Shown here: piece by piece, positions 272 to 32,345 of the stretch
Numbering within the stretch: position 1 is the first letter of the stretch
Layout: the number at the start of each line of letters is the position of its first letter
Origin: a virus
Strand: one strand, 5' to 3'
IMG/VR virus record: IMGVR_UViG_3300045988_077901
Location: 1-32,345 of that record
Length of the DNA: 32,345 bases
The notes under the pieces: generated by a model
Told to the model about the DNA's origin: nothing
Database searches by the model: none
What the model saw: the letters and a program-made list of their open reading frames with translations, nothing else
Translations under genes and position numbers: made by a program

Positions 272-1318
272 CTAGATTTTCAAGACTTGCCCCGGATAAA
301 TAACATTCGGGTTTGCAATGCCGTTTTTCGCCGCTAACGTCTGGTAGGTGGTGCCGTATTTCGCGGCAATTCCTGAAAGCGTGTCACCTGATTTCACGGT
401 GTAGGTTTGGCCGTTGGAAACGTTGCCGTTAACAATCGCCATAACTTCATTGTAGCGGCTCGCAAGAATCGCTTTGCGTTCTGAACCGTTGCGGTACTTG
501 CCCGCCCATGTTTCCTTCGCCAACTCTTCAGCAGACGCGCCGGCAATATGATTCACCATCTGTTGTACTTCGGTGAAGCGCGAACCAAGCGCCGTAGCGC
601 GTGCAGAACCGTTGCCGTAATCGCCATTAAACACACCGGCTACAAGGTCTAGCAAGTCCATGTTTTCAACGCCGGTTGCCGGTTCGGTCGGTTGCGGTGC
701 CGGCTGAACGTTTCCGCCAGCAGCGGCCATGCGCTGCCATCCGCTCGCATCCATATAGGCTTTGTTCAAGTCTAGGTTTCCGCCCCAACCGTCAAGCCGG
801 CCAGCGCTCGAATACTGGCGAACGTCGCACGTATAGGCACCTTCATTCCATGGGTTGGCCTGAATCCCCGTTTGGTTCATGTTCGCGTATTGTGCAACCC
901 ATGTTGGGCAACCGTGCTTCTTTGCAATATCCCATGGAAACACGCTTTGGCTTGAATAGATCATTGGCGCAACGCCGGTGATCTCTTTTACCTTAGCGGT
1001 AAGGGCATCGAGATAGCCGACGTTGCCCCAAGCGCTGTTCTGCTCGCTTTCCCAGTCAAGCGCAATAATGCCCTTGCCCAAGTAACCTTTGATGCTATCG
1101 GCGAAATGCCTAGCTTCAGCATCAACGCCAGCGCCGTTAATGTAATGGTAAACGCCGAAGCAAAGGCCGCGTTTAATGGCCTGTTGCACTTGCCTGTCAC
1201 AATCGGGCGAAACATAGCTTGCGCCCTGCGTCGCCTTGCAAATCACAAAATCAATTGGCAGAACATCAAGATTGATGCCCTTTTGCCAATTGCTAACGTC
1301 AATTCCTTGCATTGCCAT
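272..1318 (-). CDS. Endolysin: GH25 muramidase + two CW_7 (Cpl-7-type) repeats + C-terminal LysM
   Basis: [23 protein letters not shown] (GH25); [25 protein letters not shown] and [25 protein letters not shown] (CW_7-like); [30 protein letters not shown] (LysM); GGGAGGT RBS before ATG 1318. Confidence 0.9.
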
Positions 1319-2006
1319 AATTACCTCCCGAAATGCAGACGAAATAGAATAGATCTGATTGCTTCAGTTCTTCCAGTGTGAAAGACCGCGCCGAATTGCC
1401 GGCGCTTGCCGGGTCGCGCACCCAATATCCGCCGTCATCGTGCCGCCAGACCATGACAACATGGCTGTTGTATTTGGCATCGCCGAAAGCGCCATGCACG
1501 CCGGCGAACGCAAGCGCCCCCGAATCAACCATTGCAAGCGCTTCATCAAGGCTGTAAAGCTTACCTGTGCATGAAATGCCATAGCTTGGGTAAGCTGCTT
1601 CAATCCATTGCGCGAACTTTTCAGGATCGTTTACCCCGTCCGTCAAGCAGGAATCGCCGACAACGCCGGCAAGGTCGCGCGGCGTTACGTCCTGCGTTGT
1701 TAGGTACTTGACGGCCATTGCGGCGCACACAAGCCCGCATCCGCTATCAGCAATGGTTCCGCCGGCATAAGGTACGTTTGCCCACTGAACTTCAGTTTGC
1801 AGGTACAGCGGCATATACGTGCCGGCGGGAATGGGCTTTTGCGGGCGCTCGACAACAACAAGCGGTTCTTGCTGCTCCTGCTCTTCATGCTCCCAAGCGT
1901 TGCTTGCGACAACAAGCAGGAACAACGCAATAACCAATGCTGCAAGCGCACCGCAAAGGAACGTCAACACCTCGCGCAACGGCGGGTGCTGGCTATGCGC
2001 TCGCAT
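1299..2006 (-). CDS. Membrane-anchored papain-like cysteine peptidase (peptidase C39-like), probable second lysin
   Basis: N-terminal [22 protein letters not shown], then [17 protein letters not shown] Cys motif and HVVMVW..GYWVRDP; track start 2078 is a TTG inside the holin gene, so ATG 2006 is preferred. Confidence 0.55.
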
Positions 2007-2274
2007 GGTCGTTTCTCGGCTCGGTGTAGGCCATAACTTGCTTGGTGTCGCCAACGCCTTTTGTGGTCGGGTCAACAACTACGCCAATGACAATGAGGAC
2101 ACCAAATACCGCATCAACTACGGCAAGCAATTGCGCTTGCAACCCCTGCAAATCAAGTTGAAATCCGAACAACGCCGCAATTGCCTGAACAGCGAGAAGA
2201 ACGGCGGGAATGAACGCCATCCAAAACAGCTTGTTCTTTGCCCTAACAATAAGATTGATCTTCAAGTTTTCCAT
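1993..2274 (-). CDS. Holin (phi LC3 / Phage_holin_1-like)
   Basis: KNKLFWMAFIPAVLLAVQ..VIGVVVDPTTKGVGDTKQVMAY matches the family signature DPTTKG; two TM segments; AGGGGGA RBS. Confidence 0.85.
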   Translation of the reverse strand: MENLKINLIVRAKNKLFWMAFIPAVLLAVQAIAALFGFQLDLQGLQAQLLAVVDAVFGVLIVIGVVVDPTTKGVGDTKQVMAYTEPRNDHASA

Positions 2275-2282
2275 GATTCCCC

Positions 2283-2606
2283 CTAATCAACGACAAGATA
2301 CGGTTTCTTTTTCGCCCGTATCTCTTCCATGTACTTTTTTGCGGTGCCGTTGCCGCCAAGAACCAAATAGGCTTCAAACTCGCGTTCCAGTTCGTCATAG
2401 CGCGAAATCGTCATGTGCTTGCCGCGCACAATGTAATCTTCGTAAGCGTCGAAAATGTCACGTCGCGCCGTGCATTTGTCAATCTCAATTCGCGCCTTGT
2501 CCAGCTTTGTTAGGTGTTTAAGCTGCGCCACAAGGAACCCAAGAACGCCGGCAACAGCCATTCCGACAATGGTTGTCAAAGCTTCGTTCGCCATCAAGTG
2601 AGCCAT
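2283..2606 (-). CDS. Small N-terminally membrane-anchored protein, possible holin-associated factor
   Basis: MAHLMANEALTTIVGMAVAGVLGFLVAQL TM then charged helical tail; ATG 2606 overlaps the upstream TAA (TAATG); sits directly upstream of the holin. Confidence 0.4.
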   Translation of the reverse strand: MAHLMANEALTTIVGMAVAGVLGFLVAQLKHLTKLDKARIEIDKCTARRDIFDAYEDYIVRGKHMTISRYDELEREFEAYLVLGGNGTAKKYMEEIRAKKKPYLVVD

Positions 2607-3046
2607 TACGCCGCCACCTCTTGCCAAACGCTCGCGGTGTCGGCAGAACCGGGCTTCCACACGTTGTTGTCAACAAGCGAAACCCACTTTTTGCCATCGT
2701 GCATGACAACGGCACCGGCTGCGTATCCGTTCGTTGAATCGGGCTGCACCCATTCCGGCACCTCTTCAGCGCCCGGGCTGTCGGCGGCTGCAAGGTTTCG
2801 CGCCCAAAGGCTGTGCGCCGCCTCTGGTGTCCAGTCAGGTTGCGACGTGTGCGCAAGCAAGCACACGTAAAGCACGCCGCCATAAAGCACGCGTTCGCCC
2901 TCGGTGTAGTAGTGGGCTGCTCCCGTCCATTCGGCGTAAAGCGCGGGCGCGATTTCCGCCAAGTCATCTGAAAGCCCCGGCGCTTGCGTCTGGTAGATCG
3001 CAATAATTCCGCGCAACGCGGCTTCCTCTTCTGCTGTAAATGCCAT
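2606..3046 (-). CDS. Protein with two CBM5/12-like aromatic carbohydrate-binding repeats
   Basis: YTEGERVLYGGVLYVCLLAHTSQPDWTPEAAHSLW and YAAGAVVMHDGKKWVSLVDNNVWKPG..SVW resemble the CBM5/12 pattern; AGGGAG RBS before ATG 3046. Confidence 0.45.
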   Translation of the reverse strand: MAFTAEEEAALRGIIAIYQTQAPGLSDDLAEIAPALYAEWTGAAHYYTEGERVLYGGVLYVCLLAHTSQPDWTPEAAHSLWARNLAAADSPGAEEVPEWVQPDSTNGYAAGAVVMHDGKKWVSLVDNNVWKPGSADTASVWQEVAA

Positions 3047-3067
3047 GTTTGCTCCCTAACAATAGGA

Positions 3068-3087
3068 AAGCCCGCAAAAGCGGGCTT
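3068..3087 (-). terminator. Hairpin after the RT gene (AAGCCCGC-TTTT-GCGGGCTT on the minus strand)
   Basis: 8-bp GC stem and 4-nt loop, followed on the minus strand by TCCTATTGTT; lies between the RT stop (3116) and the next start (3046). Confidence 0.5.
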
Positions 3088-3115
3088 GTGGCCTGTAATC
3101 AGTTGTGTGTATGGT

Positions 3116-4312
3116 TCATCCGAAAAGCTGCGAAAACAGCGCGTCCATAGCCCTAACGGTTCTCCTTGCGTCAAGCTTCAGCATCGAACCGCGCCAAGAT
3201 TGATAGCTTTGCAACGCCTGTTCCCTCGTCATTTCGCCGCGCTCCACGAATGCGGCAAGCTTCTTCAGCTTGCGGCGCTGGCGCGTTACGGCGGAACGGC
3301 AAGGCCGCACAATAACTTTTCCTGTCTCTCCATAGTTGAACCTCTTCTTTAGATAGGTGAACCCGCGCGAAAGCTTAACGATGCGGGTTTTCTTGTCGTT
3401 AATGACTATGCCCAACTTTTCGCATTCCGCCCGAATGTCCGATAGCACGCCGTGAAGGTCTGCTTTGTCAAGGGCAATGCAATAAAGGTCATCCATGTAA
3501 CGCCCGCTGTGAAGAACGCACGGCGTGCGCAACAAAAGGTGGTCTATAGGGCTTGGCAACGCTACTGCTAATATCTGGTTCGGCTCGCTGCCAAGCCCAA
3601 GGCCACGGGTGCCGTGGGAATCAATTTGCGCATACACAAGTTCTTTGATTCGGTCATCGATGATTGACCTGTCAACAAGGCGCTTGCAAGCGTCATGGTC
3701 AATGTTGCCGAAGTAGCTTGAAAAGTCCACCAGCAGCACGTAACCTTCGCTGCCGTGCTTCTGGTAGTGCTTTGCAAGCTGCTGCTTGAGCCTGTCAACC
3801 GCGTAAGATGTGCCGCGCCCCTTAATGTTTGCCGTGCAACCGGCGGTAAGGGTCGGCCAGATCGCGGGCGCAAGCGCATATCGGTTCAATGCCTTGTGTA
3901 TAACGCGCTCCGAATAGTGTACGGACGTTATGTGCCGAAGCTTCCCGCGCTCGCGAATATCGAACTCAACGAAACCGCGCCTTATGTCCTTTCCCGAAAG
4001 CAAATCTTCACGGGCTTTGCAGACGTTGGGCAAGCAACGCGCCAAATAGCGTTGAACTGCCGATTTCCAACCCACGCCATGGGCGCAAGCCTGTGCGCAT
4101 CTGTAAAGGTTGTCAACGTCTGCAACCTGTTCAATGGTGCATCGTTCAAGGCGCTTTTCTCGGTTCGCCGCGCGTTTCGCATCGCGGCGGGCACGTCGTG
4201 CAGCCCGCCGCTCTTCGGATTTCACGGGCACCCCGCACGGCTTGCAATCGGCATTCCGTAGCCGCTTAGGCACCAACAATGAAACGCAAGCAAATGCCGA
4301 AACCTGCGCCAT
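3116..4312 (-). CDS. DGR reverse transcriptase
   Basis: RT motifs LLVDFSSYFGNIDH, GLGLGSEPNQILAVALPSPIDH, GRYMDDLYCIA, NDKKTRIV; immediately downstream of TR and avd. Confidence 0.9.
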   Translation of the reverse strand: MAQVSAFACVSLLVPKRLRNADCKPCGVPVKSEERRAARRARRDAKRAANREKRLERCTIEQVADVDNLYRCAQACAHGVGWKSAVQRYLARCLPNVCKAREDLLSGKDIRRGFVEFDIRERGKLRHITSVHYSERVIHKALNRYALAPAIWPTLTAGCTANIKGRGTSYAVDRLKQQLAKHYQKHGSEGYVLLVDFSSYFGNIDHDACKRLVDRSIIDDRIKELVYAQIDSHGTRGLGLGSEPNQILAVALPSPIDHLLLRTPCVLHSGRYMDDLYCIALDKADLHGVLSDIRAECEKLGIVINDKKTRIVKLSRGFTYLKKRFNYGETGKVIVRPCRSAVTRQRRKLKKLAAFVERGEMTREQALQSYQSWRGSMLKLDARRTVRAMDALFSQLFG

Positions 4313-4430
4313 GCAAGCAGCGGTCTGCGGTACCCACGGGGTGCATATTTACGGCCATATGGCCGAACGTCGCACCTTCCTTCCTCTTCTGCACGGATTG
4401 CGGACGCATCCGCAATGGCTGGCATTTTCA

Positions 4431-4560
4431 AGGAATCACGGGCGCGGGCGCACCCACTCATTAGTGGCCGAATTGTTGTTGCAGTTGCCGTTGCTGTTGA
4501 CATTGCACACGTTGGACGCGGAACCGCCCATGACGGAACGCAACCACCAATTGACGCGCT
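4431..4560 (-). repeat. DGR template repeat (TR)
   Basis: 130 bp aligning base for base with 5071..5200 (offset 640); 116/130 identical; rich in AAY codons when read in the target frame. Confidence 0.9.
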
Positions 4561-4585
4561 AAACAAGATGCGACGTATGGTTATT

Positions 4586-4993
4586 CTACCCTTGCCCAAT
4601 CAATTTCACACCCTTTCTTGCGCCCTTGATTAGCTTTATCGCCGTTTCAACATCTTCTGCCATCCGCTCGCACCTGCTCACCTTCACAATGCCAAGTTCG
4701 ATAAGGCATTGCAGGTCTTGCATGATCTGCTCGCAGTCCGCAACGGCAAGCGTCATGTAATGCCGCCGCTGGCAAACGTTGTGTTCGGTGTTGGGGTAGA
4801 ACGCGTTTGCGGTCACAAGGTTGTGAACGATGCTTCGCGCTGTTTCCGCCATCGGGACGGCAAACACGAATCGGTATGACTTCGGCAACGCCGAAGAAGT
4901 AACAAGCGCCGTGATCTCTTTTCTGATTCTAACGGCGGTTGTGAAATACTCGTAATTGCTCAAATCGCGATAGCGGGCTAGAACTGTACTCAA
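4586..4993 (-). CDS. avd: Accessory variability determinant (Avd-like, four-helix-bundle type)
   Basis: 135-aa helical basic protein between target and TR, the canonical Avd position; TTG start with GAAAGG RBS. Confidence 0.7.
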   Translation of the reverse strand: MSTVLARYRDLSNYEYFTTAVRIRKEITALVTSSALPKSYRFVFAVPMAETARSIVHNLVTANAFYPNTEHNVCQRRHYMTLAVADCEQIMQDLQCLIELGIVKVSRCERMAEDVETAIKLIKGARKGVKLIGQG

Positions 4994-5014
4994 AGCAAGC
5001 CTTTCTTGTATCTA

Positions 5015-5035
5015 GCGCCCGCGCAAGGCGGGCGC
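5015..5035 (-). promoter_or_regulatory. GC-rich hairpin downstream of VR (candidate DGR target-recognition hairpin/cruciform)
   Basis: GCGCCCGC-gcaag-GCGGGCGC, 8-bp all-GC stem; 26 nt past the target stop codon, 36 nt past the VR end. Confidence 0.5.
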
Positions 5036-5060
5036 GGTTAAAGCGCACGGCATCGGCTTA

Positions 5061-5969
5061 TCAGTCTATTAGGAAGCACGGGCGCGGGCGCACCCAGTCA
5101 TTAGCGGCCGAATGGTTGCTGCAGTGGCCGTAGCTGCGGACAATGCACACGTGGGACGCGGAACCGCCCACGACGGAACGCAACCACCAAAAGACGCGCT
5201 CGCCCATCAAGCGGCTTGCCGCGCTGTCGAATATGGGGAAGTGGCAATCCATACCAACAGAATAACCCTTGCTGCCCCAAACAGCGCACCCGTAAACTTC
5301 CATTTCGGACAAAGACCAGACCTTGCCTAGGTCTGCCCATCCCCAGCCGCTAGCTTCAGTAAGCCCACCTGAAGAACCGTAGCGCTGTTCTGCCAACGAA
5401 CGGTGGTTCATAAGAACGTTGCGCAATGCCGCTGGCAAAGCCGGCAAATAATCGCTTATCTCCCAGCCGTGAAGCTTGCTGATTAGGTAGGGTTCTTTCG
5501 TGGTCGCGTTGCCGTTGTTGGTCGCTGTGTCGTTCCACTTGATATAGCTACCGTTTGAAGCCTTAGACCCGCCGACAAGGACGGGTGCCGATGGGACGAA
5601 CGCGATATGGTGCCCCATTGGCGAATCTGAACACTGGTAATAGGGATCAATTGCGCCGATCATGTAACGCACGGTCTGCGCCGGAACGTTCGTGCCGGCT
5701 GTGATTGGAACGTCCATGTAATCGCCGATGCGCAAGCCGGTGAAGTCTCCATCCTGCGCCCGCGATTTCAACCAGGCGTAAATATCGCCGCCAGCAGCGG
5801 CAATCTCCGAAGCGAAAGTGGTTGCAAGCGAACGCCCCTTGAATTGCGCAATGCCCTTTTGGCGGTCGAACTCTTCCTGAACGGTTACGGCGCTGGCAGA
5901 ATCACGCGCCGTTGTGTCTGCGTTCATGTATGTAGTGCCATTTACGTTGAAGCCCTTTAAGTCTGACAT
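5061..5969 (-). CDS. DGR target protein: tail-module receptor-binding candidate with C-type-lectin-like variable C-terminus
   Basis: C-terminus ..VWSLSEMEVYG..FPIF..RVFWWLRSVVGGSASHVCIVRSYGHCSNHSAANDWVRPRPCFLID holds the VR; AGGGGG RBS before ATG 5969 (the track start 5987 is less likely). Confidence 0.85.
   Translation of the reverse strand: MSDLKGFNVNGTTYMNADTTARDSASAVTVQEEFDRQKGIAQFKGRSLATTFASEIAAAGGDIYAWLKSRAQDGDFTGLRIGDYMDVPITAGTNVPAQTVRYMIGAIDPYYQCSDSPMGHHIAFVPSAPVLVGGSKASNGSYIKWNDTATNNGNATTKEPYLISKLHGWEISDYLPALPAALRNVLMNHRSLAEQRYGSSGGLTEASGWGWADLGKVWSLSEMEVYGCAVWGSKGYSVGMDCHFPIFDSAASRLMGERVFWWLRSVVGGSASHVCIVRSYGHCSNHSAANDWVRPRPCFLID
5071..5200 (-). repeat. DGR variable repeat (VR)
   Basis: Differs from TR at 14 positions, 13 of which are A in the TR coding strand; ends 8 nt before the target stop codon. 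Confidence 0.9.
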
Positions 5970-5979
5970 TTTCAGCCCC

Positions 5980-7071
5980 CTAAACAAGTGTGATTATGTT
6001 GTCTGCGAAGGTCGCGCCTGGAATGGAAAGCACGCCGTTTTCTACGGTTGCGCCACGGCTTGCCGGAACGTAGCAAATGCCGTCAATGATTATGTAATCG
6101 TCCGTGGCATCGCAAAGCGCACGCGCAAGCGTCGCATTGTCCCTTTTCAATTGGTCAATATCGGCGCTGCTGGCACCGCCGCCTGAACCGCCGCCGCCAG
6201 AACCAATGACGTTCAAGGCACGCTTCGTTGCGTCCCTCGCATCTTCGGCGGCGCTGTGCGCGTCAGCCGCCGCAATGTCGGCGTTCGCCTTTGCCGTGTT
6301 GGCCGCGCTTGCGGCATCGTTCGCCGCCGTTGCCGCGCTATTGGCGCTCTCAATCGCGGTTTCTACGCGCTCCGCCGCCGCGTTCGCCGCCGTTGCCGCG
6401 CTATTGGCGCTGGCCGCTGCGCTGTTCGCCGAAGATGCGGCGCTTGTTGCGCTGCTTGCAGCGCTGTTGGCAGAAGATGCGGCGCTTGTGGCAGACTGTG
6501 CCGCCGCATTCGCTGCGCTCGCGGCGCTGTTGGCCGCCGTTGTGGCCGCTTCGGCGTTCGTCACGGCTGTTTCGACGCGTGCCACCCCCGCATTCGCTGC
6601 ACTTGCGGCGCTGTTTGCGCTTGCCGCTGCGCTGTTGGCCGAACTTACGGCGGCGTTTCCGCGCTTGATTAAGTTGTCTATTGCGTCATCCCAGCTTTGC
6701 GCCGGTTGCTGTCCGGCTGTGGCGCATTTCAGAATCTCGATTGCGAAGCGCTCCGTTGAGTAGCGCACGCCGTTTTTCTCGAACGCGAAATAGGCTTCGT
6801 CCGTGTAGCCCGGAATGCTGCAAAGCTTGCTTTCGTCAACGGTGACGGTTGCGGCGTTGCCTGAAATGGTGGCCGCTGCGCGGTAGTAGTTCGCCTTGTT
6901 TGGCAACAGCACTTCAAGGTATCCCGTGAAGTCAGTTAGCGCCGCTTCCGCGCCGCCGTCGTAGATAAGCGCCTTGATGGTGGTTCCGTGCTTGTCGCCC
7001 TGACCGACGCGGACAAGGCCAGCGCCCAAGCCGTCCTTGCTAAGGTCTAGTTCAAGCGTGTGCGTGTTCAT
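5980..7071 (-). CDS. Tail fibre / baseplate upper protein (BppU-like N-terminus, Ala/Ser heptad stalk, Gly linker, C-terminal head)
   Basis: N-terminus MNTHTLELDLSKD..VRVGQGDKHGTTIKALIYDGG (BppU_N-like); ~140 aa of SAASSAN-type heptads; GSGGGGSGGG linker. Confidence 0.65.
   Translation of the reverse strand: MNTHTLELDLSKDGLGAGLVRVGQGDKHGTTIKALIYDGGAEAALTDFTGYLEVLLPNKANYYRAAATISGNAATVTVDESKLCSIPGYTDEAYFAFEKNGVRYSTERFAIEILKCATAGQQPAQSWDDAIDNLIKRGNAAVSSANSAAASANSAASAANAGVARVETAVTNAEAATTAANSAASAANAAAQSATSAASSANSAASSATSAASSANSAAASANSAATAANAAAERVETAIESANSAATAANDAASAANTAKANADIAAADAHSAAEDARDATKRALNVIGSGGGGSGGGASSADIDQLKRDNATLARALCDATDDYIIIDGICYVPASRGATVENGVLSIPGATFADNIITLV
6230..6660. repeat. 21-nt periodic GC-rich coding repeats (heptad stalk), including a perfect 31-bp direct repeat at 6318..6348 and 6381..6411
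   Basis: cgttcgccgccgttgccgcgctattggcgct occurs twice 63 bp apart; the surrounding sequence is variations of gccgc(n)ttggc units. Confidence 0.7.
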
Positions 7072-7469
7072 CGGCTCTCACCCGCCTTGGTGATCTCGCG
7101 CAGGGCGGCAAGCTTCGCGCTGAACGTCTCTACCGGGTCGCGCACCTGCGCCGGTGGGTCATCGTCTGCCGCCGCGAGCGCCGCCGCTTCGGGAAGCATG
7201 AGCGTTTGCAGCGCGTCGAACACGTCAACCACTGCTTGCATTCGCTCGTCAACATAGACGGGCTGCACAAGCTGCAAAGAACCTTCGGTGCCCTTTTGCG
7301 GCTTGACTTCCGAAATATCCGCAATGCGCCTGTTGCCGTGGGCATCGACGGCCACGAACACCACGCCTTGCGATGCAGCCGCATTGAGCAATGCGGGGTC
7401 AAACTCTGTCACTTGCGCTTCGGTGTTGCTCAACGGGTCGTGAGCCATGTAGATAACTGTTTCGCCCAT
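7068..7469 (-). CDS. Hypothetical tail-module protein
   Basis: MGETVIYMAHDPL.. with AAGGGGGA RBS just after the Tal stop; the track N-terminal extension overlaps the Tal gene. Confidence 0.5.
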   Translation of the reverse strand: MGETVIYMAHDPLSNTEAQVTEFDPALLNAAASQGVVFVAVDAHGNRRIADISEVKPQKGTEGSLQLVQPVYVDERMQAVVDVFDALQTLMLPEAAALAAADDDPPAQVRDPVETFSAKLAALREITKAGESR

Positions 7470-7479
7470 ATCGTCCCCC

Positions 7480-9420
7480 TTATCCTGTTCCAACCGTGCC
7501 GTATGTGGTGCATAGCCCGTCAATATGCGAAATCTTGAAAGTTCCGTAATGCCAGCCAACGCAACCGTTGCCGTTGTCGTGCAGTTCGGAAATGATGGGC
7601 TGTGAAATGGTGCCTGTCTGGCATATAGTCGCAACCGTGCTTATGTCGCTGCTCGCCGCCACCGATATTTGCGGGCTTGAAATCCTCGTGCCGTGCTGTG
7701 CTTGAAGCTGCAAGCCTTGGTACAGTTCGCCGGTCTGCACGTTTCGGAAGTGAGCCGAGAAGTCAATAACGCCGATCTGCACGCCGTTTTCGCTTCCCCG
7801 AATCTCCCCGGAAATCAGTTGCAGCAGGTTAGACGCAAGGCCGCATGAGAACTGGCCGTTTGCGGTGATGTTGTTTGCTTTCATGTAATTTGTGGTCAAC
7901 GTCCCGTTGGTCAAATTCCACGTGTTGCGCCCCCTGTCATCGGTCAGCAGCCCCGCGCGTATGCGGTCGGCTCGCATCGTTCCGGCGTTGATGCAATCGG
8001 CGGTCACGCTCGCGCCCGTTATGAACGTCTTCCAGTTCCATTGCCCGCTGCTCGTAAGGCTCGAAGCAAGGCGGATGCCGCGCCCGGAAATGTTCACGCA
8101 CCACATACCCGACACGCTTTTGAGCGGCAAGCCGGTTTCGGGGTTCAAGGGCACGTTGCTGTACAAGCTGCCAAGTTCAAAGGTTTCAACCTTGTAGGTT
8201 CCAACTGAATTGAACTGATCGTTAAGCGCGTCTTGAAGCTGCACCAGCCAGCTAACCGACGTGCCCGCCACCGCGTCATAGGTCGCCGCCGCGCGGCTGC
8301 TGTTCTTTAGGGTCTGGCTCACGCTCTGCCACATATCGGCCATGCTGTTAATGAGGTTGCCGAAAGTAACGGTAGCGTCGCCGCCCAGCAAGTCGCGTTC
8401 GATCTGCGACACGCGCCCGGTAAGCCTTATGCCCTCTTCGGTAAAGCCCTTGTCGATTATCGCCACGCGGTCACCAACCGCCGCGCCTTCCCAGCTTCGC
8501 CCGAACGCGTACAGGTCAAGCACGCTCGCTTCATAGCTAACCTTCGGTTCGCTGACCTCTGCAAGGTACGCTTTCGTTTCCTTTAGAAGCTGCGCGGCAT
8601 CCTCGCACTGCTCGTTCACGTAGCTTGTGCAAGCTGGCAGAGCGGTGCCGCTGGCGTTCGGATGCCCCCAAATCTTCGTTGCGGCGGCATCCTCGACGTA
8701 GGCTTTGCCGCCGTTGATTGATTCAAAGGTCAGCCGTCTGCCGTAAGCCCCCGAATCCGTCTCAACGCCCTTGCCGTAGCCGTAGACGCGCGTTTTCGGG
8801 TTGTCAGCCGCCACCGTGCGCGTGATGGTCTTAATGTCCTTCGTCCACGTGAAGCGCTTAGGGCTTGACTGGTTGCCGCGCAGCTTGCGCACGCCGACTT
8901 GGCGCGAAACCACCGAAGAACCATTGGTTGTAATGGTGGTTTCCAACTCGCCGCCCCACGCTTCCAAAATCTCGGCTATGGATTCGCGGGCGCTCTGGTG
9001 GTAGAGAACGACGCTTGCGCTTGCGGTCACGTCGCACGCGCCCACCGCCCAGCGCGTGCCGGTAAGCACGCGGGCAAGCGCCGTTGCAACCTGCCCCGAC
9101 GGCCTTACATCGTCCGTCCAATCGTCCCAAAGTTCGGCGATTGAGTTAACGCCCGTGAACTCGGTTTGCAAGGTTCCGTCTTCGCCGTGGGTTCGGCTCG
9201 CATCGTCAACAATGTGTTCATGGGTCTTGCCCTGCGCGTCAACCCAAACGATATAGTCACCCTTGTTCACGTCATCGGAACACGTCACCTTGATTTCGTC
9301 GGTGCCGTCCAGCGCTTCGGTGTGCGTCGCCGCCGTAACGTCCAGCCGCCCAAGGTTTACGCCCCAGCGCGAAAAGCGCGTGAAGCCAACTTTTCTGATT
9401 AAAGCCATCTTTCCCGCCAT
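7480..9420 (-). CDS. Tail-associated / tail tip protein (phage minor structural protein, Prophage_tail-like)
   Basis: 646 aa directly after Dit; N-terminal region typical of siphovirus Tal proteins; start may be ATG 9408. Confidence 0.75.
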   Translation of the reverse strand: MAGKMALIRKVGFTRFSRWGVNLGRLDVTAATHTEALDGTDEIKVTCSDDVNKGDYIVWVDAQGKTHEHIVDDASRTHGEDGTLQTEFTGVNSIAELWDDWTDDVRPSGQVATALARVLTGTRWAVGACDVTASASVVLYHQSARESIAEILEAWGGELETTITTNGSSVVSRQVGVRKLRGNQSSPKRFTWTKDIKTITRTVAADNPKTRVYGYGKGVETDSGAYGRRLTFESINGGKAYVEDAAATKIWGHPNASGTALPACTSYVNEQCEDAAQLLKETKAYLAEVSEPKVSYEASVLDLYAFGRSWEGAAVGDRVAIIDKGFTEEGIRLTGRVSQIERDLLGGDATVTFGNLINSMADMWQSVSQTLKNSSRAAATYDAVAGTSVSWLVQLQDALNDQFNSVGTYKVETFELGSLYSNVPLNPETGLPLKSVSGMWCVNISGRGIRLASSLTSSGQWNWKTFITGASVTADCINAGTMRADRIRAGLLTDDRGRNTWNLTNGTLTTNYMKANNITANGQFSCGLASNLLQLISGEIRGSENGVQIGVIDFSAHFRNVQTGELYQGLQLQAQHGTRISSPQISVAASSDISTVATICQTGTISQPIISELHDNGNGCVGWHYGTFKISHIDGLCTTYGTVGTG

Positions 9421-10124
9421 TCCAGCACCGCGCTGCCGCCGCTTAGTTGCAGGGTCGTGCGGCCATTGATCGTGAAGAAATCCGAATCAAGCGTGACGGC
9501 GGCGGCTTGGCTGTTGACGGTCGCCCGCTCTAGCGCCATGTCAACGCGCACGGTGCTTGTGCTTGTGACGCTCGACGCAAGCTTTACTTGCTCGCCCGTG
9601 TCAACGTTCCTGATATACCAAGCCGCGCTTGAAGACGGCTTAGCGGTGATTGCCAGATGCGCGGGGCGGTTGCCGCCCGCGTTCACCGTGAACGTTCCCG
9701 CCTTGACTTCAACGCGGCGCTTGTTGCCGTAATAGAACGGATCGCCAACATGGAACGTCACCGTTGTGCTTGGGCAAGCGTCCGTGATCTCGCCAAGGTC
9801 TGTTGACCCGCTCACGATTGCCAGAAGGTAGCGCGTGGGGTCATCGGGAAGCACCAGCGGCGCGGGTTCGTCGGTGCATAGCAGTTCCGCCAGTGCGTGG
9901 CGAACCGCCGCCGCGTCCCGCCTGTCATCGCTTCTTAGCCAAATGTCAACCGGCAGATCATAGCCCCCGAAGTAGGCCGATTTGAACAACTCGCCGTGGC
10001 GGCCTGAAACGCTCTCGAAGTTCGCGTTTACAGGTGCCATGATAGGCCGGTTGACCTTGCAGCTTACAAGGGCGCTTAGGTCGTGCCCGTTGAATATAAC
10101 GCGGTCGGTCTGCGCCCGCTTCAT
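9399..10124 (-). CDS. Distal tail protein (Dit, Sipho_tail-like)
   Basis: VIFNGHDLSALV..ESVSGRHGELF pattern; position between tape measure and Tal; ATG 10124 starts 1 nt after the TMP stop. Confidence 0.75.
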   Translation of the reverse strand: MKRAQTDRVIFNGHDLSALVSCKVNRPIMAPVNANFESVSGRHGELFKSAYFGGYDLPVDIWLRSDDRRDAAAVRHALAELLCTDEPAPLVLPDDPTRYLLAIVSGSTDLGEITDACPSTTVTFHVGDPFYYGNKRRVEVKAGTFTVNAGGNRPAHLAITAKPSSSAAWYIRNVDTGEQVKLASSVTSTSTVRVDMALERATVNSQAAAVTLDSDFFTINGRTTLQLSGGSAVLEWRERWL

Positions 10125-10125
10125 C

Positions 10126-12678
10126 TTACGTTGCAACGCTCACACCCCTTTGCTTTAGCTTGCTTGCAATCCCAAGGCCGATTTGCTGGCCTGTCTGGTA
10201 CGCGTCCGCATTGCCCGCAACCGTCGCGTTGACCTCGACGCTGACGGCGATTTGCTGCGCGGGCTGTCCGCCGTTGAACGCGTTGTTAACCGCGCGTTCG
10301 ATGAAGTCCCATAGCTGCTTTTCAGGCGCCACGTACTCGCCGCCCGCTTCGCCAACGCCGATGATCGAAGCTTTGTCGAAGTAGCCGCCGCGTGCGTACC
10401 AGTCAACGGACACGCTAGGCAGCTTGATTGGGCCAACGTCATTCCAAGAAACGTTGAAGTGCGGCATCTTGATTTTCGGCAACTCAATCTTGATGCCGCC
10501 GAAGATGCTCATAATCTTGCCCGGTATGTCCTTTATGAAGTTCCACGCGTTTTCAATGGGGTTCTTCATGAAGTCTCGAACGCTGTTGAACACGCCGTTT
10601 ACCTTCTCGCCCAAGCCCGGAAAGCCCAGCTTGTTGCCTATGGCATCGGCGACGCGCACGGCGTTTTGCTGCGCGTTGTCCATCTTCTGGCTGATGTTGT
10701 CCTTGATCGCGTTAAAGGCGTTGGCGGCTTCGGCCTTGGCGGTTGACCAGTCGCCGGAAAGGGCGGCTTGCAGGGCGCTGCCCGCGCTGCTGCCCACCTG
10801 CTCTGCCGTGTTCATGTCGTTTTGCACGGTGGAAGCAATTCCGCCGAAGTACGTTTGCGTGGCGGTCTGTAGGGTGTTCCACTTGTCGGAAACCCAATCA
10901 GCCGCGCCCTGTGCCTTTTCGGAAACGGTGCTTTTGATGTTCTCCCAAGCGTTGCTTGCGTCCTGCTTGAAGCCTTCCCATTTGCTCGCAACATCGCTTT
11001 TGAACTGCTCAACGCCGCTTGTAACGTCGTTCCAAACGCCGCCCCAGAACTCACCGGCACCGCTAAGGAAGTCACAAACGCCCTGCCACTTCTCCGAAAT
11101 CCAGCCGGTGAAGTCAGCCCACATCTGCTTGCCCGTCTCGGTCTGCGTGAAGAACCACGTAAGACCGGCCACCGCCGCGCTTACCGCTGCGATGCCAAGG
11201 CCGATAGGGTTAGCGGTGATAAGGCCGGTTAGGCTCTTCCATCCGCCGCCAAGACCGCCGAACTTCCCGCCCAGCCCGTCGGCCTTTCCGCCAAGGTCAA
11301 CGAAGCCGCCCGCAATGCTCTTGATCGCGCCGCCGATGGGCGCGGCGCTCTGCATGAACTTGCCAACGGCGGTAGTAACCCCGCCGAACGCCAGCACGCC
11401 TAGCCCAAGGTTCTTGACTAGTTCTTGCTGCTCCGGCGACAGCGATTTGAACCAATCCGAAGCGGCTTGAAGCGCCGGTGTCAGCTTGCCTAGAATCTCG
11501 CTGCCAATTTCGGTTACCATCTGCTTTACCGGCAAGGCCGCTTCGCCCATTTCGCGCATGGATGTTTCAAGTTCGTTTTGCGCGTCGCGGCTTGCCAACA
11601 AGTCTTTGTTGGTTTCCTGAAACGCCTTGCCAGCATCCCCGTAAACGCCCGCCAGCGCGTCCGTTACAAGGGTCGCGCGTTCCTGCTCGGTCTTGCACGC
11701 CGCCAGTGCTTCGTTAAAAGCGTCTTCCTTGGTCTGACCCTCTGCAATGGCCTTGTTGAAAGCTGCTTGTGCGGCAGAATTGCCGGAAAGGGCGTTGCTC
11801 CACTGCTCGGCGCTAGCCGTTGACCAGTTGAGCGCGTCGGCGAAACTGCCGGTTACCGCGCCGGTGTGCGCGGTTTCCTGCGCCGTTTCTGCCAAGTTCT
11901 CCAACGGCAGCGCGTCGCCGAATGTGGCATAGGCACCGGCTGCAATGTCAGTCCACTTCTTCAATTCCTCTTCGTCTTGCGTGAGCCTGATTAGGTTCTG
12001 GCTCGCTTCGGTGGCGGTGTCGCCGTCGCCCAAGATGCGGTAGAAGTTCGCATAGGTGGTCTGCGCTTGCTCAACGGTGCTTCCGGCGCTGGTGAAAGCG
12101 GTTTCAAGCTGGTTGTTCTTGGCTATGGCCTCTTCTTGGCTCTCCGCAAGGGCGGTCAGGCCGGTTGCCGCCGCCGTGATGCCGCCGGAAATAGCAAGCC
12201 CGCCGCGCTCAACGCCCTTGCCCGCCTTTTCCAGCTTGTCGGCGTTATCTTCGATGGTCTGGCCGAACTTGTATAGCTTGGTTTTCGACGCTTCGGCTTC
12301 GCGCGACGTTTCGGCAAGTTCCTTGCCGTACGATTCAAGCTGGTTTTCGCATTGCAAGATAGCGCGTTTAAGGCTGTCGTATTGCCGTTCCTCTTCGGCG
12401 GTCAGCCTAGCGCCGCTCTGCTGTTTCGCTTCAAGCTGCGCAAGCGCCTGTTTGTACGCGTCCAACTTCTGTTGCGTCTCGCCATAGGCGCTGTTTAGCG
12501 CCTTGACCTTCTGTTGCAGCAAGTCGGTATTGCCCGGATTGAACTTCAAAGACTTGTCAATTTCCTTCAAGTCCGCTTGGGTCTTCTTGGATTCGCTAGA
12601 AACCTTCTTCAAAGCCCCTTGAAGTTCGGTAGTGTCGCCGCCGAACTTGATAACAAGCCCTTTGTAGCTTACCGCCAT
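10126..12678 (-). CDS. Tape measure protein
   Basis: 850 aa, coiled-coil N-terminus, Gly-rich hydrophobic centre (GGKFGGLGGGWKSLTGLITANPIGLGIAAV), canonical position. Confidence 0.9.
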   Translation of the reverse strand: MAVSYKGLVIKFGGDTTELQGALKKVSSESKKTQADLKEIDKSLKFNPGNTDLLQQKVKALNSAYGETQQKLDAYKQALAQLEAKQQSGARLTAEEERQYDSLKRAILQCENQLESYGKELAETSREAEASKTKLYKFGQTIEDNADKLEKAGKGVERGGLAISGGITAAATGLTALAESQEEAIAKNNQLETAFTSAGSTVEQAQTTYANFYRILGDGDTATEASQNLIRLTQDEEELKKWTDIAAGAYATFGDALPLENLAETAQETAHTGAVTGSFADALNWSTASAEQWSNALSGNSAAQAAFNKAIAEGQTKEDAFNEALAACKTEQERATLVTDALAGVYGDAGKAFQETNKDLLASRDAQNELETSMREMGEAALPVKQMVTEIGSEILGKLTPALQAASDWFKSLSPEQQELVKNLGLGVLAFGGVTTAVGKFMQSAAPIGGAIKSIAGGFVDLGGKADGLGGKFGGLGGGWKSLTGLITANPIGLGIAAVSAAVAGLTWFFTQTETGKQMWADFTGWISEKWQGVCDFLSGAGEFWGGVWNDVTSGVEQFKSDVASKWEGFKQDASNAWENIKSTVSEKAQGAADWVSDKWNTLQTATQTYFGGIASTVQNDMNTAEQVGSSAGSALQAALSGDWSTAKAEAANAFNAIKDNISQKMDNAQQNAVRVADAIGNKLGFPGLGEKVNGVFNSVRDFMKNPIENAWNFIKDIPGKIMSIFGGIKIELPKIKMPHFNVSWNDVGPIKLPSVSVDWYARGGYFDKASIIGVGEAGGEYVAPEKQLWDFIERAVNNAFNGGQPAQQIAVSVEVNATVAGNADAYQTGQQIGLGIASKLKQRGVSVAT

Positions 12679-23417: not shown

Positions 23418-24617
23418 TCATTGCAACAACTCCTTCAACTCAACGTGCGCCGCTTCAGCCGCTTGCTCAAAGACGATTGCAGCGCGTTTCCCGCTTCCCG
23501 GCATTCGGTGCGCGTATGTCTTGACGGTGATTGCTTCGTCGGCGTGCCCTAAGCGATTGGAAACGGTCTTAACGTCTACGCCGTTGACCAGAAGCCATGT
23601 TGCGTGCGTGTGCCGCAATCCGTGGTAGGTAAGCCCTTTCGGCATACCCGCTTTTGCCGCAATGCCGGAAAACGCACGCGATATGGTGGACGGTCTGCAA
23701 TAGCTGCCGTCTATCGTGATTAGCGGTGCATCTGCTGGCAGATCGCCGCAAAACCTCTTTCGCAGTTCCAAGAAATCGGCGATAACCTGCAAATCAGATT
23801 CGGCAATCTCAATCGTTCGATTGCGACGGCCTTTTGTGACGTTGCGCCTGTATGGCCTTTTGCCCTTTTGCTCAATTACCGTGCCGGCAATGTGTATCGT
23901 CTTTGCTGCTTCCGAAATCTCGTTAGGCCACAACGCGCACACCTCGCCGCACCTCATGCCTGTTCTAAGCGCGAACCAAGCGGCAAACGCGTTCAAAACG
24001 CGCCTATACGTAACCTTGTTCAAAACCTCTGGTTTAAGAATCGCTTTTAGCTGCTCGTCCAGCTTTGCGAAATCCACGGTTGCAAGTGAAATTGCTTCGT
24101 GTGTCTCCAAGCGCGGCTTGTTAACTGCAATGAGCGGGTTAATCTGGCAAATGTTTTCTTCCACGAACCACGAATAGGCACCGCGCAAGAAATCGTGTAC
24201 GTTGCGCACGGTGTTTTGCGATAGTTCAAAGCCCTTTTTGCTCTTCGGTCGGCGCAAGGCAATTTCAAACTTCGTGAAGTTGTGCGTTTGAAGGTCGCAC
24301 GCGTTGACGGCTCCGAAGTACCTAACGGCATACTTCGTGAACAGCCGATAGCTTCTAACGGTGTTTGGCGAAAAGCCCGCCAGTTCGCAATACTCTGTGT
24401 AATCGTCCAGCAGATCGCCAAGCAACGCGCTAAGCACCAGCCCATTAGCCGACAGCTTGGAAGCCCACGCGTCGGCCATTTCCTGCGCTTGCTCTTCGTC
24501 TTGCGCCGTTGGAAACTCGCGGTAGGGCTGAATCGCCTTGCCTTCAGCCGTGCGCCCAAGATACGGGCGGGCAAACCACACTTCACGCTTAGTGTCCCAT
24601 TTCACCTTGCAGCGCAT
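23418..24617 (-). CDS. Tyrosine recombinase / phage integrase family
   Basis: ALRTGMRCGE, HGLRHTHATWLL, LGHADEAITVKTYAH catalytic signature; ATG 24617 follows the upstream stop with a GAGG RBS. Confidence 0.9.
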   Translation of the reverse strand: MRCKVKWDTKREVWFARPYLGRTAEGKAIQPYREFPTAQDEEQAQEMADAWASKLSANGLVLSALLGDLLDDYTEYCELAGFSPNTVRSYRLFTKYAVRYFGAVNACDLQTHNFTKFEIALRRPKSKKGFELSQNTVRNVHDFLRGAYSWFVEENICQINPLIAVNKPRLETHEAISLATVDFAKLDEQLKAILKPEVLNKVTYRRVLNAFAAWFALRTGMRCGEVCALWPNEISEAAKTIHIAGTVIEQKGKRPYRRNVTKGRRNRTIEIAESDLQVIADFLELRKRFCGDLPADAPLITIDGSYCRPSTISRAFSGIAAKAGMPKGLTYHGLRHTHATWLLVNGVDVKTVSNRLGHADEAITVKTYAHRMPGSGKRAAIVFEQAAEAAHVELKELLQ

Positions 24618-24619
24618 GG

Positions 24620-24955
24620 CTATTCGACCTCGGTTTGCTCTACGTTGCCTAACGGGCATTCGTTGCGCATCACGAAGCCAAGATGCTTGCTTGCTTCTGT
24701 TCTTTTAGGAAATTGGCAGCAATCTTCAAAACTGTTCCAATAGGCGCACTGGTCATCTACTGTTTCGGTGCCGCTGCATTGCTCTAACTCTTCCGGAAGA
24801 ATGCGCCAAAAAAACGGCACAATGCAATACCCGACAAGAAACACCCGACCGCACTTGAAGCACTCTACTTCATATTCAATGCCTGGTTCTTGCTCGCAGT
24901 ATTCGGAACCATCAAAAGCAGCGCCGCAATATGGGCACGTATATTCAGCATTCAT
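24620..24955 (-). CDS. Zinc-ribbon hypothetical protein
   Basis: CPYC..(26 aa)..CFKC; GGAGGG RBS. Confidence 0.5.
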   Translation of the reverse strand: MNAEYTCPYCGAAFDGSEYCEQEPGIEYEVECFKCGRVFLVGYCIVPFFWRILPEELEQCSGTETVDDQCAYWNSFEDCCQFPKRTEASKHLGFVMRNECPLGNVEQTEVE

Positions 24956-30889: not shown

Positions 30890-32345
30890 ATGGAAAAGAA
30901 ACGCGCCGCTATATACGCCCGCTTTTCGTCGCACAATCAACGTTCCGAATCGATAGAAATCCAAGTTGAGAACTCAACGCGCTATTGCCAAGAAAACGGC
31001 CTTGACGTTGTGCGCATCTATACAGACTACGCAAAGACCGGGCGCAACACTGACCGCGCCGAATTTCAACGGATGATGGACGATGCCCGCTTGGGTCTGT
31101 TTGATTTCGTCGTGATCTACAAGGTAACGCGCATTATGCGCAATCGCGACGAAATGGCGCTTGCACGCATCATGCTTCGCAAGTCAGGCGTTGAAATACT
31201 CTATGCCGGTGAGGAAATCGCCAGCGGTTCAAGCGGCGTGCTGCAACTTGGAATGCTCGAAGTGCTGGCGGAATGGGAAAGCGCCATAGACAGCGAGCGA
31301 ATCAGGGATGGAATACAGAAGAACGCCCAACGCTGCATGGCCAATGGCCGCACGCTTTACGGTTGGGACATAGTGGAAGGACGCTACCGCGTCAATGATC
31401 GTGAAGCCGCTTGGCTGAGAAAAATGAAGAACAAGTTGTTTAGCGGCGCAACCATGGCCGAAGTGGTGCGAAGCGTGGACGCAATGCGCACCCGCCAAGG
31501 AAAGAAGGTTAACCAAGACACCGCAACAAAGCTGCTGTTGCGTCCCCAGAACGGCGGCACTTATTGCTATGCCGGCGTTGTTGTTGAAGGTGGGATGCCG
31601 GCGCTTTGGCCGAAGCACGAACAAGACATGATAATTTCAATGCTGAAAAGCCGCCACAAGCCGCATAGGCGCGTTGATACCGCCGAAGAATGGCCGTTGT
31701 CCGGCAAGCTATGGTGCGCTTGCTGTGACAGCACCTTAACCGGCACAAGCGGCACAAGCGCCACTGGCAAGACCTATGCTTATTACAAGTGCAACAAGTG
31801 CGGGCGCACCTTCAGGCGCGACGTTTTGGAAGATGCCATAGTGGACGTTGTTTGCGAAGCTGTGAAGCGCCCCGAAATACGGGGCAATATAGCCGCCCTT
31901 ATGGCTGATTGGTCTAAGGATAATGCGGAAGAAACACCGCTAGAAAGTGAGCGCATCAAAGGTGAGATTAGGCGCATTGATGCGGCATTTGAAAACATCT
32001 GGCAAGCCATCGAATCGGGCATAGCGCCGCCGGGTGGCAAAGATCGCGTTCAGGAATTGACCGAACGCAAAAACGAACTTGAAGCCGAATACCACATGGC
32101 TAAAGCGCATGAAAGCTTAGAACCAGACTATGAAGAAATAAGGCAATGGCTTGACGAAATAGCGCAGAATCTAATGCCGCAAGAAATATTGAAAATGTTC
32201 ATTCGAGCGGCTGAAATTGAAGGTGACGTTGTGAAGCTATTCTTTGCATTTGACTACTACGGTAATGACTTCACACCGCCCAAATATAGACACGAACTAT
32301 TCTCTAATGAGAATAGTTCGTGTAATTCTCCTATGGTGGAGCCTA
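30890..32345 (+). CDS. Large serine recombinase (integrase); runs off the window end and finishes at 198-200 (518 aa in total)
   Basis: My own translation, not in the ORF track: MEKKRAAIYARFSSHNQ (catalytic Ser motif), resolvase-like core, recombinase domain, zinc ribbon CACCDS..YYKCNKCG, then coiled coil; no stop in 485 codons. Confidence 0.9.
   Translation, partial: MEKKRAAIYARFSSHNQRSESIEIQVENSTRYCQENGLDVVRIYTDYAKTGRNTDRAEFQRMMDDARLGLFDFVVIYKVTRIMRNRDEMALARIMLRKSGVEILYAGEEIASGSSGVLQLGMLEVLAEWESAIDSERIRDGIQKNAQRCMANGRTLYGWDIVEGRYRVNDREAAWLRKMKNKLFSGATMAEVVRSVDAMRTRQGKKVNQDTATKLLLRPQNGGTYCYAGVVVEGGMPALWPKHEQDMIISMLKSRHKPHRRVDTAEEWPLSGKLWCACCDSTLTGTSGTSATGKTYAYYKCNKCGRTFRRDVLEDAIVDVVCEAVKRPEIRGNIAALMADWSKDNAEETPLESERIKGEIRRIDAAFENIWQAIESGIAPPGGKDRVQELTERKNELEAEYHMAKAHESLEPDYEEIRQWLDEIAQNLMPQEILKMFIRAAEIEGDVVKLFFAFDYYGNDFTPPKYRHELFSNENSSCNSPMVEP
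32247..32345. repeat. Terminal direct repeat, identical to 1..99
   Basis: See the 1..99 feature. Confidence 0.95.

Follow-up and report, generated by a model that had tools for sequence, protein, structure and literature searches.

A probably functional diversity-generating retroelement of the BPP-1 type in a temperate phage of predicted Eggerthellaceae hosts

The IMG/VR virus record IMGVR_UViG_3300045988_077901 was analysed over its full length of 32,345 nt (hereafter the window), with emphasis on a candidate diversity-generating retroelement (DGR) located between positions 3,116 and 5,969. An original prediction, made from the letters of the sequence, had placed on the minus strand a target gene ending in a variable repeat (VR), followed by a GC hairpin, an avd gene, a template repeat (TR) and a reverse transcriptase (RT) gene. 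All of these components are present where they had been located, with the TR and VR forming a 130-nt ungapped repeat. In their order along the minus strand, the features of this cassette are as follows:

5061..5969, minus strand: DGR target gene, 302 amino acids (aa), stop codon included, directly downstream of a BppU-like fibre gene
5071..5200, minus strand: VR, 130 nt, covering target codons 257-300 of 302
5071..5091, minus strand: IMH-like (initiation of mutagenic homing) 3' end of the VR, with a GC-rich run GCGCCCGCGCCCG and then TGCTTCCT
5015..5035, minus strand: GC hairpin after the VR, with an 8-bp stem GCGCCCGC/GCGGGCGC and a 5-nt loop CTTGC, 35 nt past the end of the VR homology
4586..4993, minus strand: avd, encoding a predicted accessory four-helix-bundle protein of 135 aa, the TTG start being consistent with homologues of 135-136 aa
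4431..4560, minus strand: TR, 130 nt, non-coding, between avd and the RT gene
4208..4417, minus strand: structured spacer RNA of the Rfam family RT-2 (RF03077), matched by cmscan over the full-length model (1-222)
3116..4225, minus strand: DGR RT, probably 369 aa, with YMDD as catalytic motif and LGSEPNQ as domain-4 motif

A repeat search of the window recovered the TR and VR as an ungapped direct repeat with 89% identity and 14 mismatches. In gene orientation, 13 of these 14 mismatches oppose an adenine of the TR to another base in the VR, and the last one is a G->C change; with 26 adenines among the 130 nt of the TR, 13 or more mismatches at A out of 14 have a binomial probability of 9.3e-9. 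Half of the TR adenines (13/26) are mismatched. When read in the frame of the VR, these adenines occupy codon position 1 in 13 cases, position 2 in 12 and position 3 in a single one, the TR includes 10 AAY codons, and nearly all the VR changes at TR adenines are found at codon positions 1 and 2. The locus displays both hallmarks of a DGR at this level: a TR/VR pair differing almost only at TR adenines, and a VR embedded in a coding target gene facing a non-coding TR with adenines at codon positions 1 and 2. The possibility of another VR within the genome was considered and rejected, as no further TR-like copy occurs on either strand of the window.

Related genomes provided a view of the natural diversification of the target. 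The 15 target homologues that are 91-95% identical to the window protein differ from it mainly in residues 260-291, where adenine-bearing codons are all variable (14/14, with 2-9 residue types), while 23 of the 27 adenine-free VR codons are invariant among the 16 close homologues. A sister contig (L095, ENA ERZ27272577), whose backbone is 96% identical to that of the window, carries an identical TR (130/130) and a VR with 11 substitutions, found at adenine positions only and following a pattern unlike that of the window VR. Similarly, one common TR is associated with three different VRs in loci L002/L009, L003/L004 and L010. As judged from these alignments, near-identical genomes keep their TR constant while their VR varies, as would be expected from a DGR. 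Together with the intact open reading frames (ORFs), this diversification in sister genomes supports the earlier view of an intact cassette.

The same organization was broadly distributed among RT relatives, which were surveyed in 71 IMG/VR loci with RTs 50-92% identical to that of the window. Ungapped scans detected a TR just upstream of the RT gene in 66/71 loci, with a VR 640-760 nt further upstream, and these 66 loci displayed 5-19 mismatches at adenines, with no more than 1-2 at other bases, per 90 nt. One locus (L064, IMGVR_UViG_3300029728_000110, 2706-2949) has its TR much nearer to the RT gene and no match to the RT-2 RNA, and may represent a variant architecture. As a separate observation, contig CAVCDZ010000059.1 (L012), labelled Oscillibacter sp., contains a near-identical Eggerthellaceae-type prophage region, which may reflect mis-binning. 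In its repeat pair (4792-4906 / 5428-5542), the first ~45 nt of the VR have no ungapped alignment with the TR and 38 mismatches were counted overall, which suggests an indel.

The ORF proposed for the RT (3116-4312), with its YMDD motif, was recovered and is open back to an ATG at 4312, giving 398 aa; this start codon, and the 118-bp spacer that it implied, were not retained. Most RT homologues are about 369 aa long, their initial MKSEERR or MNSEERR aligning with V30 of the window ORF and their upstream extensions being variable and unconserved. Moreover, ATG 4312 sits in a block, CTTGCATGGC, that is invariant at the DNA level even where the RT is only about 50% identical. Since homologues begin at V30 and ATG 4312 falls inside this invariant block of a conserved RNA motif, the ATG was rejected as the RT start, which is most likely GTG 4225 (369 aa). 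The spacer separating the TR from the RT gene would therefore be ~205 nt long, and not 118 nt.

Regarding its class, the RT matched Pfam RVT_1 (E 1e-11) and PHROG 1423 'Reverse transcriptase' (E 6e-66). Its best PDB match was the Bordetella bRT (8ub7, E 8e-16, residues 56-381), with group II intron RTs at 2e-4; entry 8ubb of the same series is titled 'Diversity-generating retroelement (DGR) ribonucleoprotein reverse transcriptase'. The LGSEPNQ motif is invariant across 25 aligned RT homologues, and R74 and I181 of bRT, which promote adenine mutagenesis in that enzyme, align with R and L in the window RT. These results bear on the alternative in which the RT would be of a different type (group II intron, retron or Abi/DRT defence) and the TR/VR pair an unrelated duplication or an assembly artefact. 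While a group II intron RT model ranked first in NCBIfam (E 5e-15) and matches to numerous PADLOC DRT models reached 1e-8 to 1e-12, such matches are explained by generic RT-domain similarity, with scores falling far below the cut-offs of the dedicated models (55.5 vs 300 for the group II model TIGR04416, 21.7 vs 235 for retron_St85, and 20-26 vs 200-450 for Drt2/3a/4). Rfam searches of window positions 2500-7000 revealed neither group II intron RNA nor retron non-coding RNA, and both the adenine specificity of the mismatches (P 9.3e-9) and the recurrence of the same architecture on more than 60 independent contigs argue against a fortuitous duplication or an artefact. A group II, retron or DRT identity was rejected, this alternative being effectively refuted, and sequence comparison assigns the RT to the DGR clade.

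The product of the small gene located beside the TR was also consistent with its earlier designation as Avd-like, with a match to PHROG 3206 'Avd protein of DGR' (E 6.8e-7). The AlphaFold2 (AF2) model of this protein is a helical bundle (pLDDT 92.4), for which Foldseek identified structures of the 23S-rRNA-IVP family (2gsc and 2rld, TM-score about 0.9). The model superimposes on the Avd of Bordetella phage BPP-1 (4dwl_D) with a TM-score of 0.84 and a root-mean-square deviation of 2.0 A, and on the Avd chain 8ubb_D with a TM-score of 0.77. In addition, hhalign matched the whole of the Avd family profile to the protein annotated as Avd in Roseburia phage Shimadzu, with a probability of 98.2%. 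Structure prediction thus points to an Avd-type four-helix bundle encoded beside the TR.

Signals known to direct homing in other DGRs have candidate counterparts on the VR side. At the GC-rich end of the repeats, VR base 5076 belongs to a TGC codon (Cys298) and its TR equivalent, base 4436, to an in-frame TGA. This difference is fixed in every related locus examined, and Cys298 is kept in all 16 target homologues. Because the A/C difference is fixed in all loci, it is best seen as an IMH/IMH*-type difference and not as a product of random mutagenesis, and this base is evidently not transferred from TR to VR. The in-frame TGA also means that the TR copy could never be translated through. The hairpin located after the VR is kept in relatives with compensatory changes, as illustrated by GTGCCCGCC-GAAA-GGCGGGCGC in L008 and GGCCGCCGC-GTCAT-GCGGCGGCC in L013, the stems being fully changed in L013/L014.

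The spacer extending from the TR to the RT gene exceeded the threshold of the RT-2 family (87.8 bits vs a gathering score of 40, E 1e-20), and several RNA elements were delineated in and around it:

4565..4576, minus strand: 5' strand ACGTCGCATCTT of a 12-bp long-range duplex, directly 5' of the TR, pairing with 4367-4378
4397-4416, minus strand: stem-loop ATTGCGGA-TGCG-TCCGCAAT, 14 nt after the TR
4352-4365, minus strand: stem-loop, then A-rich TAAATATG
4228-4235 and 4337-4344, minus strand: helix GCACCCCG/CGGGGTGC, covering the Shine-Dalgarno region of the RT gene

For 26 distinct spacers, RNAalifold predicted 48 pairs, 30 of which show compensatory changes. RT-2 was found in the interval from TR to RT gene in 10 of the 11 further loci tested, Roseburia phage Shimadzu included, and also at L096 5391-5614, L013 5477-5708 and L094 2762-2985 (Eggerthellaceae, Collinsella-type and Roseburia phage DGRs). 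The RT-10 motif of BPP-1 gave no match at E<=1 in the Rfam scan of window positions 2500-7000. Motifs RT-1 to RT-19 have been described near RT genes; only RT-10 was assigned to a DGR, as the TR-brt spacer of BPP-1, with the speculation that other motifs serve DGRs too (Weinberg et al., PMC5737381). A literature search for 'RT-2 RNA' turned up only the Rfam release paper.

The TR is flanked by the two strands of the 12-bp duplex. In a comparison of 22 distinct loci, pairing extends to 92% of its cells, a count biased by the choice, for each locus, of the register with maximal pairing; the location of the partner, directly upstream of the TR, is the same in every locus. Both sides change in 8 of the 12 pairs, and the covariation score of 0.518 (vs 0.236 for shuffles) was reached by none of 500 shuffles, slid registers giving at most 58% of paired cells. 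The 3' strand of the duplex (4367-4378) lies within a stretch drawn unpaired in the Rfam consensus structure of RT-2. Since single-sequence folding did not differ significantly from shuffles for the hairpin region (z -1.4) or for the spacer (z -0.8), the hairpin and spacer structures are supported by covariation and not by folding energy.

These elements find parallels in the ribonucleoprotein (RNP) of BPP-1, whose cryo-EM structure includes an Avd-binding tetraloop stem-loop just past the TR, a 'cPRT Stop' duplex that pairs sequences on either side of the TR, and an adjacent stem-loop followed by adenosines (bioRxiv 10.1101/2023.10.23.563531). Counterparts of all three occur in the window, at 4397-4416, at 4565-4576/4367-4378, and at 4352-4365 with its A-rich tract, respectively. 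The helix GCACCCCG/CGGGGTGC contains GGGG, the likely Shine-Dalgarno sequence of the RT start GTG 4225, and through it RT translation may be tied to the folding of the RNA or the assembly of the RNP. On balance, we lean slightly towards a joint reading in which the orphan family RT-2 would provide the spacer scaffold RNA in a large clade of DGRs from gut phages, found in Actinomycetota phages (Eggerthellaceae, Collinsella) and in Bacillota phages (Roseburia phage Shimadzu). This RNA would belong to another Rfam family than the RT-10 of BPP-1 but share its architecture, comprising a covarying, cPRT-Stop-like duplex between the apparently single-stranded GGAAGG-N tract of RT-2 and the nucleotides immediately 5' of the TR, a tetraloop stem-loop after the TR resembling the Avd-binding element, a stem-loop with an A-rich tract, and a closing CCCC/GGGG helix over the RT Shine-Dalgarno, where RNA folding or RT-Avd binding could gate RT translation. 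The link between Rfam RT-2 and a DGR template RNA, TR-bracketing duplex included, is the only mildly new point of this analysis.

The target protein, whose start at ATG 5969 is consistent with homologues of 300-302 aa, matched Pfam DUF6273 over residues 152-301 with 36.7 bits, above the gathering score of 23.5 of this family. This domain (PF19789) is present in all listed target homologues but one. Single-sequence and profile searches of the PDB returned chance matches only (nitrile hydratase, cytochrome oxidase type). With the AF2 model (pLDDT 85.4), the sole significant neighbour identified by Foldseek in the PDB was 9qa6, an IgA peptidase of T. ramosa with a DUF6273 as its N-terminal domain, and searches of BFVD retrieved many phage DUF6273 proteins, together with models named receptor-binding or tail-collar fibre proteins. 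DUF6273 has been described as a C-lectin-like DGR target domain in gut phages, and such targets have been treated as receptor-binding proteins (RBPs; PMC10743442, PMC11792537). Furthermore, relatives P0085 and P0100 are fusions of BppU_N and DUF6273, which supports an attachment of the target to the baseplate or fibre. Synteny, these fusions and the annotations of relatives are in line with the role of likely receptor-binding protein initially proposed, and the target is probably a receptor-binding module.

The DGR might also be real without its DUF6273 protein being the primary binder of the host receptor, this protein instead serving as an auxiliary adhesin of the virion, with glycans, mucus or secondary receptors as examples of what it would bind, or having a role outside adsorption. 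Receptor binding is here deduced indirectly, two other candidate binding proteins are encoded nearby (the fibre protein at 5980-7071 and a CBM_5_12 protein at 2606-3046), and DUF6273 is also a non-phage domain in the bacterial IgA peptidase, the paper on which holds no information on a ligand of this domain. Such a role is less easily reconciled with a target gene placed directly after that of a BppU-like fibre, with the BppU_N-DUF6273 fusions, with the position of the Shimadzu homologue, annotated as a tail fibre, after baseplate J and P2_I genes, or with phage RBP and tail-fibre models being its structural neighbours; the published treatment of DUF6273 DGR targets as RBPs points in the same direction. 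An accessory or non-adsorption role is regarded as unlikely, and a receptor-binding module is the preferred interpretation.

Taken together, the locus is best explained as a complete, functional BPP-1-type DGR (target-avd-TR-RT) carried by a complete, ~32.2-kb temperate phage of siphovirus type associated with Eggerthellaceae, a reading to which we assign a probability of roughly 0.93. Several points weigh against it. The domain-4 motif of the RT ends with NQ and not SQ: the DGR signature is [I/V/L]GxxxSQ, as opposed to QGxxxSP in other RTs (PMC7826257), so that N replaces S while [L]G and the terminal Q match; NQ is a minor variant in DGRs that still have adenine exchanges (PMC3521204). For Avd, the Pfam 23S_rRNA_IVP score (20.3 bits) is below the gathering score of 33.8, and sequence and profile searches of the PDB gave chance matches only. 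Known DGR hairpins, which are needed for BPP-1 retrohoming, have a GC-rich stem of 7-10 bp and a 4-nt GRNA loop, and are located 4-34 bp downstream (PMC3240598); the window loop CTTGC departs from this consensus and its distance of 35 nt is just beyond the published range. Lectin matches to the target model in the PDB are weak (C-type lectins at E 0.4-3), with Mtd absent from the Foldseek results, and the receptor-binding role draws on synteny and on the annotations of relatives. The activity of the DGR in this exact genome is deduced from that of its sister genomes. Finally, one TR/VR difference is not at an adenine: at 5097 (minus strand, codon 291), GAG became GAC, replacing E by D. This G->C change can be assigned to the VR side since sister contig L095 has the same TR, unchanged at that position, and could have arisen by point mutation or by a rare misincorporation at a base other than adenine.

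This non-adenine mismatch and the unusual hairpin loop could also be taken as signs of a recently inactivated relic, intact in its anatomy and no longer diversifying. Yet no ORF is disrupted, the RT retains YMDD and the motifs invariant in its family, and the RNA scaffold fully matches RT-2. A sister phage has exactly this TR together with a VR that differs at adenine positions only, and the window VR itself differs at half of the TR adenines. Inactivation is on these grounds very improbable, and a functional DGR is retained in the following.

In such an element, a transcript comprising the TR, flanked by the 3' end of avd and the ~205-nt spacer, would fold into a conserved scaffold composed of the 12-bp duplex around the TR, the tetraloop stem-loop after it, the stem-loop with its A-rich stretch and the remaining RT-2 helices. 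The RT-Avd complex would bind this scaffold RNA, through presumed protein-RNA contacts, and reverse-transcribe the TR, probably by cis-priming, with misincorporation opposite adenines. At the 3' end of the DUF6273 gene, the resulting cDNA would then take the place of the VR, with the GC-rich IMH-like VR end and the downstream GC hairpin as guides for homing. Randomisation of ten AAY codons and several other adenine-bearing codons could generate about 1e14 possible protein variants, scaffold codons remaining fixed. The varied protein is most likely a receptor-binding tip on the BppU-like fibre or baseplate, and the phage could therefore change its adsorption specificity.

The genomic context of the cassette is that of a temperate phage of siphovirus type. 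The first 99 nt of the window recur as an exact terminal direct repeat (1-99 = 32247-32345), and the genome can thus be considered complete, with ~32,246 bp, and circular or terminally redundant. On the minus strand, genes for the integrase, TerS and TerL, portal, capsid, major tail protein and tape measure protein are followed by those for Dit, Tal, a small ORF, the BppU-like fibre, the DGR cassette and the CBM_5_12 protein, and then by those for a small membrane protein, the holin, a C39-like protein and the endolysin. No tRNA genes were found in the window. The neighbouring genes are the following:

23418-24659, minus strand: integrase
7068-7634, minus strand: extra ORF between the Tal and fibre genes, 144 aa as called in a sister contig
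5980..7071, minus strand: BppU-like fibre protein, 363 aa, directly upstream of the target gene, matching PHROG minor tail and tail fibre families
2606-3046, minus strand: CBM_5_12 (carbohydrate-binding) protein, 146 aa, conserved, between the RT and lysis genes and also present in L095
1993-2274, minus strand: holin
1299-2078, minus strand: Peptidase_C39-like domain ORF, 259 aa, between the holin and endolysin genes
272-1318, minus strand: GH25-CW_7-LysM endolysin

The target gene had been placed directly after Dit, Tal and the fibre. Its adjacency to the fibre gene is observed, but Tal and fibre do not succeed each other directly, the ORF at 7068-7634 lying between them. The Pfam BppU_N match of the fibre protein is weak (17.2 bits, below the gathering score). 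Within the fibre gene, 150-nt direct repeats with 73% identity were noted at 6293-6652 (minus strand), which encode Ala/Ser/Asn-rich repeats of the 'SANSAAS' type. The CBM_5_12 protein has no VR and could be a second host-binding or cell-wall-binding component. The Peptidase_C39-like ORF is an unusual member of a lysis cassette.

The relatives identified are prophages of Adlercreutzia muris, including that of strain DSM 29508 (locus L009), of A. caecimuris and of other Eggerthellaceae, with more distant ones in Collinsella and Olsenella. The Actinomycetota association proposed earlier holds, and these relatives designate gut Eggerthellaceae (Adlercreutzia) as the predicted host. A megablast of window positions 3000-12000 against INPHARED phages returned nothing, relatives being detected there at the protein level only.

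The window element leaves the general knowledge of DGRs unchanged. It provides a clean and complete case of a phage that would reprogram its own host-recognition tip in little-studied gut hosts (Adlercreutzia, Eggerthellaceae), with one TR and different VRs in sister genomes as natural evidence of activity, and flags the DUF6273 gene as a probable host-range determinant for this phage group. It also associates the orphan Rfam family RT-2 with a putative defined function at the DGR template, a link of potential use for the reconstitution or engineering of Gram-positive DGRs.

The resemblance to BPP-1, the reference for the predicted mtd-avd-TR-brt order, is extensive. The window displays the equivalent target-avd-TR-RT succession, the RT being followed by the lysis module side, and shares with BPP-1 a VR located 3'-terminally in a tail-fibre-associated gene, adenine-specific TR-to-VR differences, a GC-rich IMH-like VR end with a differing TR counterpart, a GC hairpin after the VR, a predicted four-helix-bundle Avd (TM-score 0.84 to 4dwl), an RT with bRT 8ub7 as its best PDB match, and a structured spacer RNA with a TR-bracketing duplex and a tetraloop stem-loop just past the TR. 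In contrast to BPP-1, the target is a DUF6273 protein and not Mtd, with no link to Mtd detected by sequence or Foldseek, and the spacer RNA is RT-2, that of BPP-1 being reported as RT-10. Further differences include IMH and IMH* that differ at one fixed base (C vs A, TGC -> TGA), a hairpin loop CTTGC vs GAAA, an RT motif ending in NQ vs SQ, and a predicted Gram-positive host belonging to the Actinomycetota.

Closer equivalents exist in gut phages. Eggerthella lenta prophages possess DGRs (ert-avd-TR-mtd) whose 130-bp TR lies upstream of the RT, an avd-like gene separating it from the target, and a chemostat experiment showed one of them diversifying (PMC8778435). Compared by description, these elements and that of the window have the same architecture in temperate phages of the same host family, Eggerthellaceae, and differ in host genus and phage lineage, the nearest relatives of the window residing in Adlercreutzia. 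The closest deposited phage genome is that of Roseburia phage Shimadzu (LR596903.1, orf22-24), annotated as tail fibre-Avd-RT in the same order. Its 'tail fibre protein' (orf22) is 39% identical to the window target over 86% of the length and its RT is 47% identical, with an RT-2 RNA between Avd and RT (144.9 bits) and lysis genes that follow, whereas its baseplate is P2-like of myovirus type, its host belongs to the Bacillota and its target is longer (431 aa). DUF6273 DGR targets are also found in Faecalibacterium phages Lelie, Roos and Pioen, and in phages nd4 and nd12 as 'tentaclins', in which the domain is N-terminal with added Ig-like domains, the window protein being a single 302-aa module beside a separate fibre gene. 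As equivalent cassettes have been published for E. lenta and annotated in Shimadzu, the window DGR is of an already known kind, in agreement with the original prediction that it falls within an established class.

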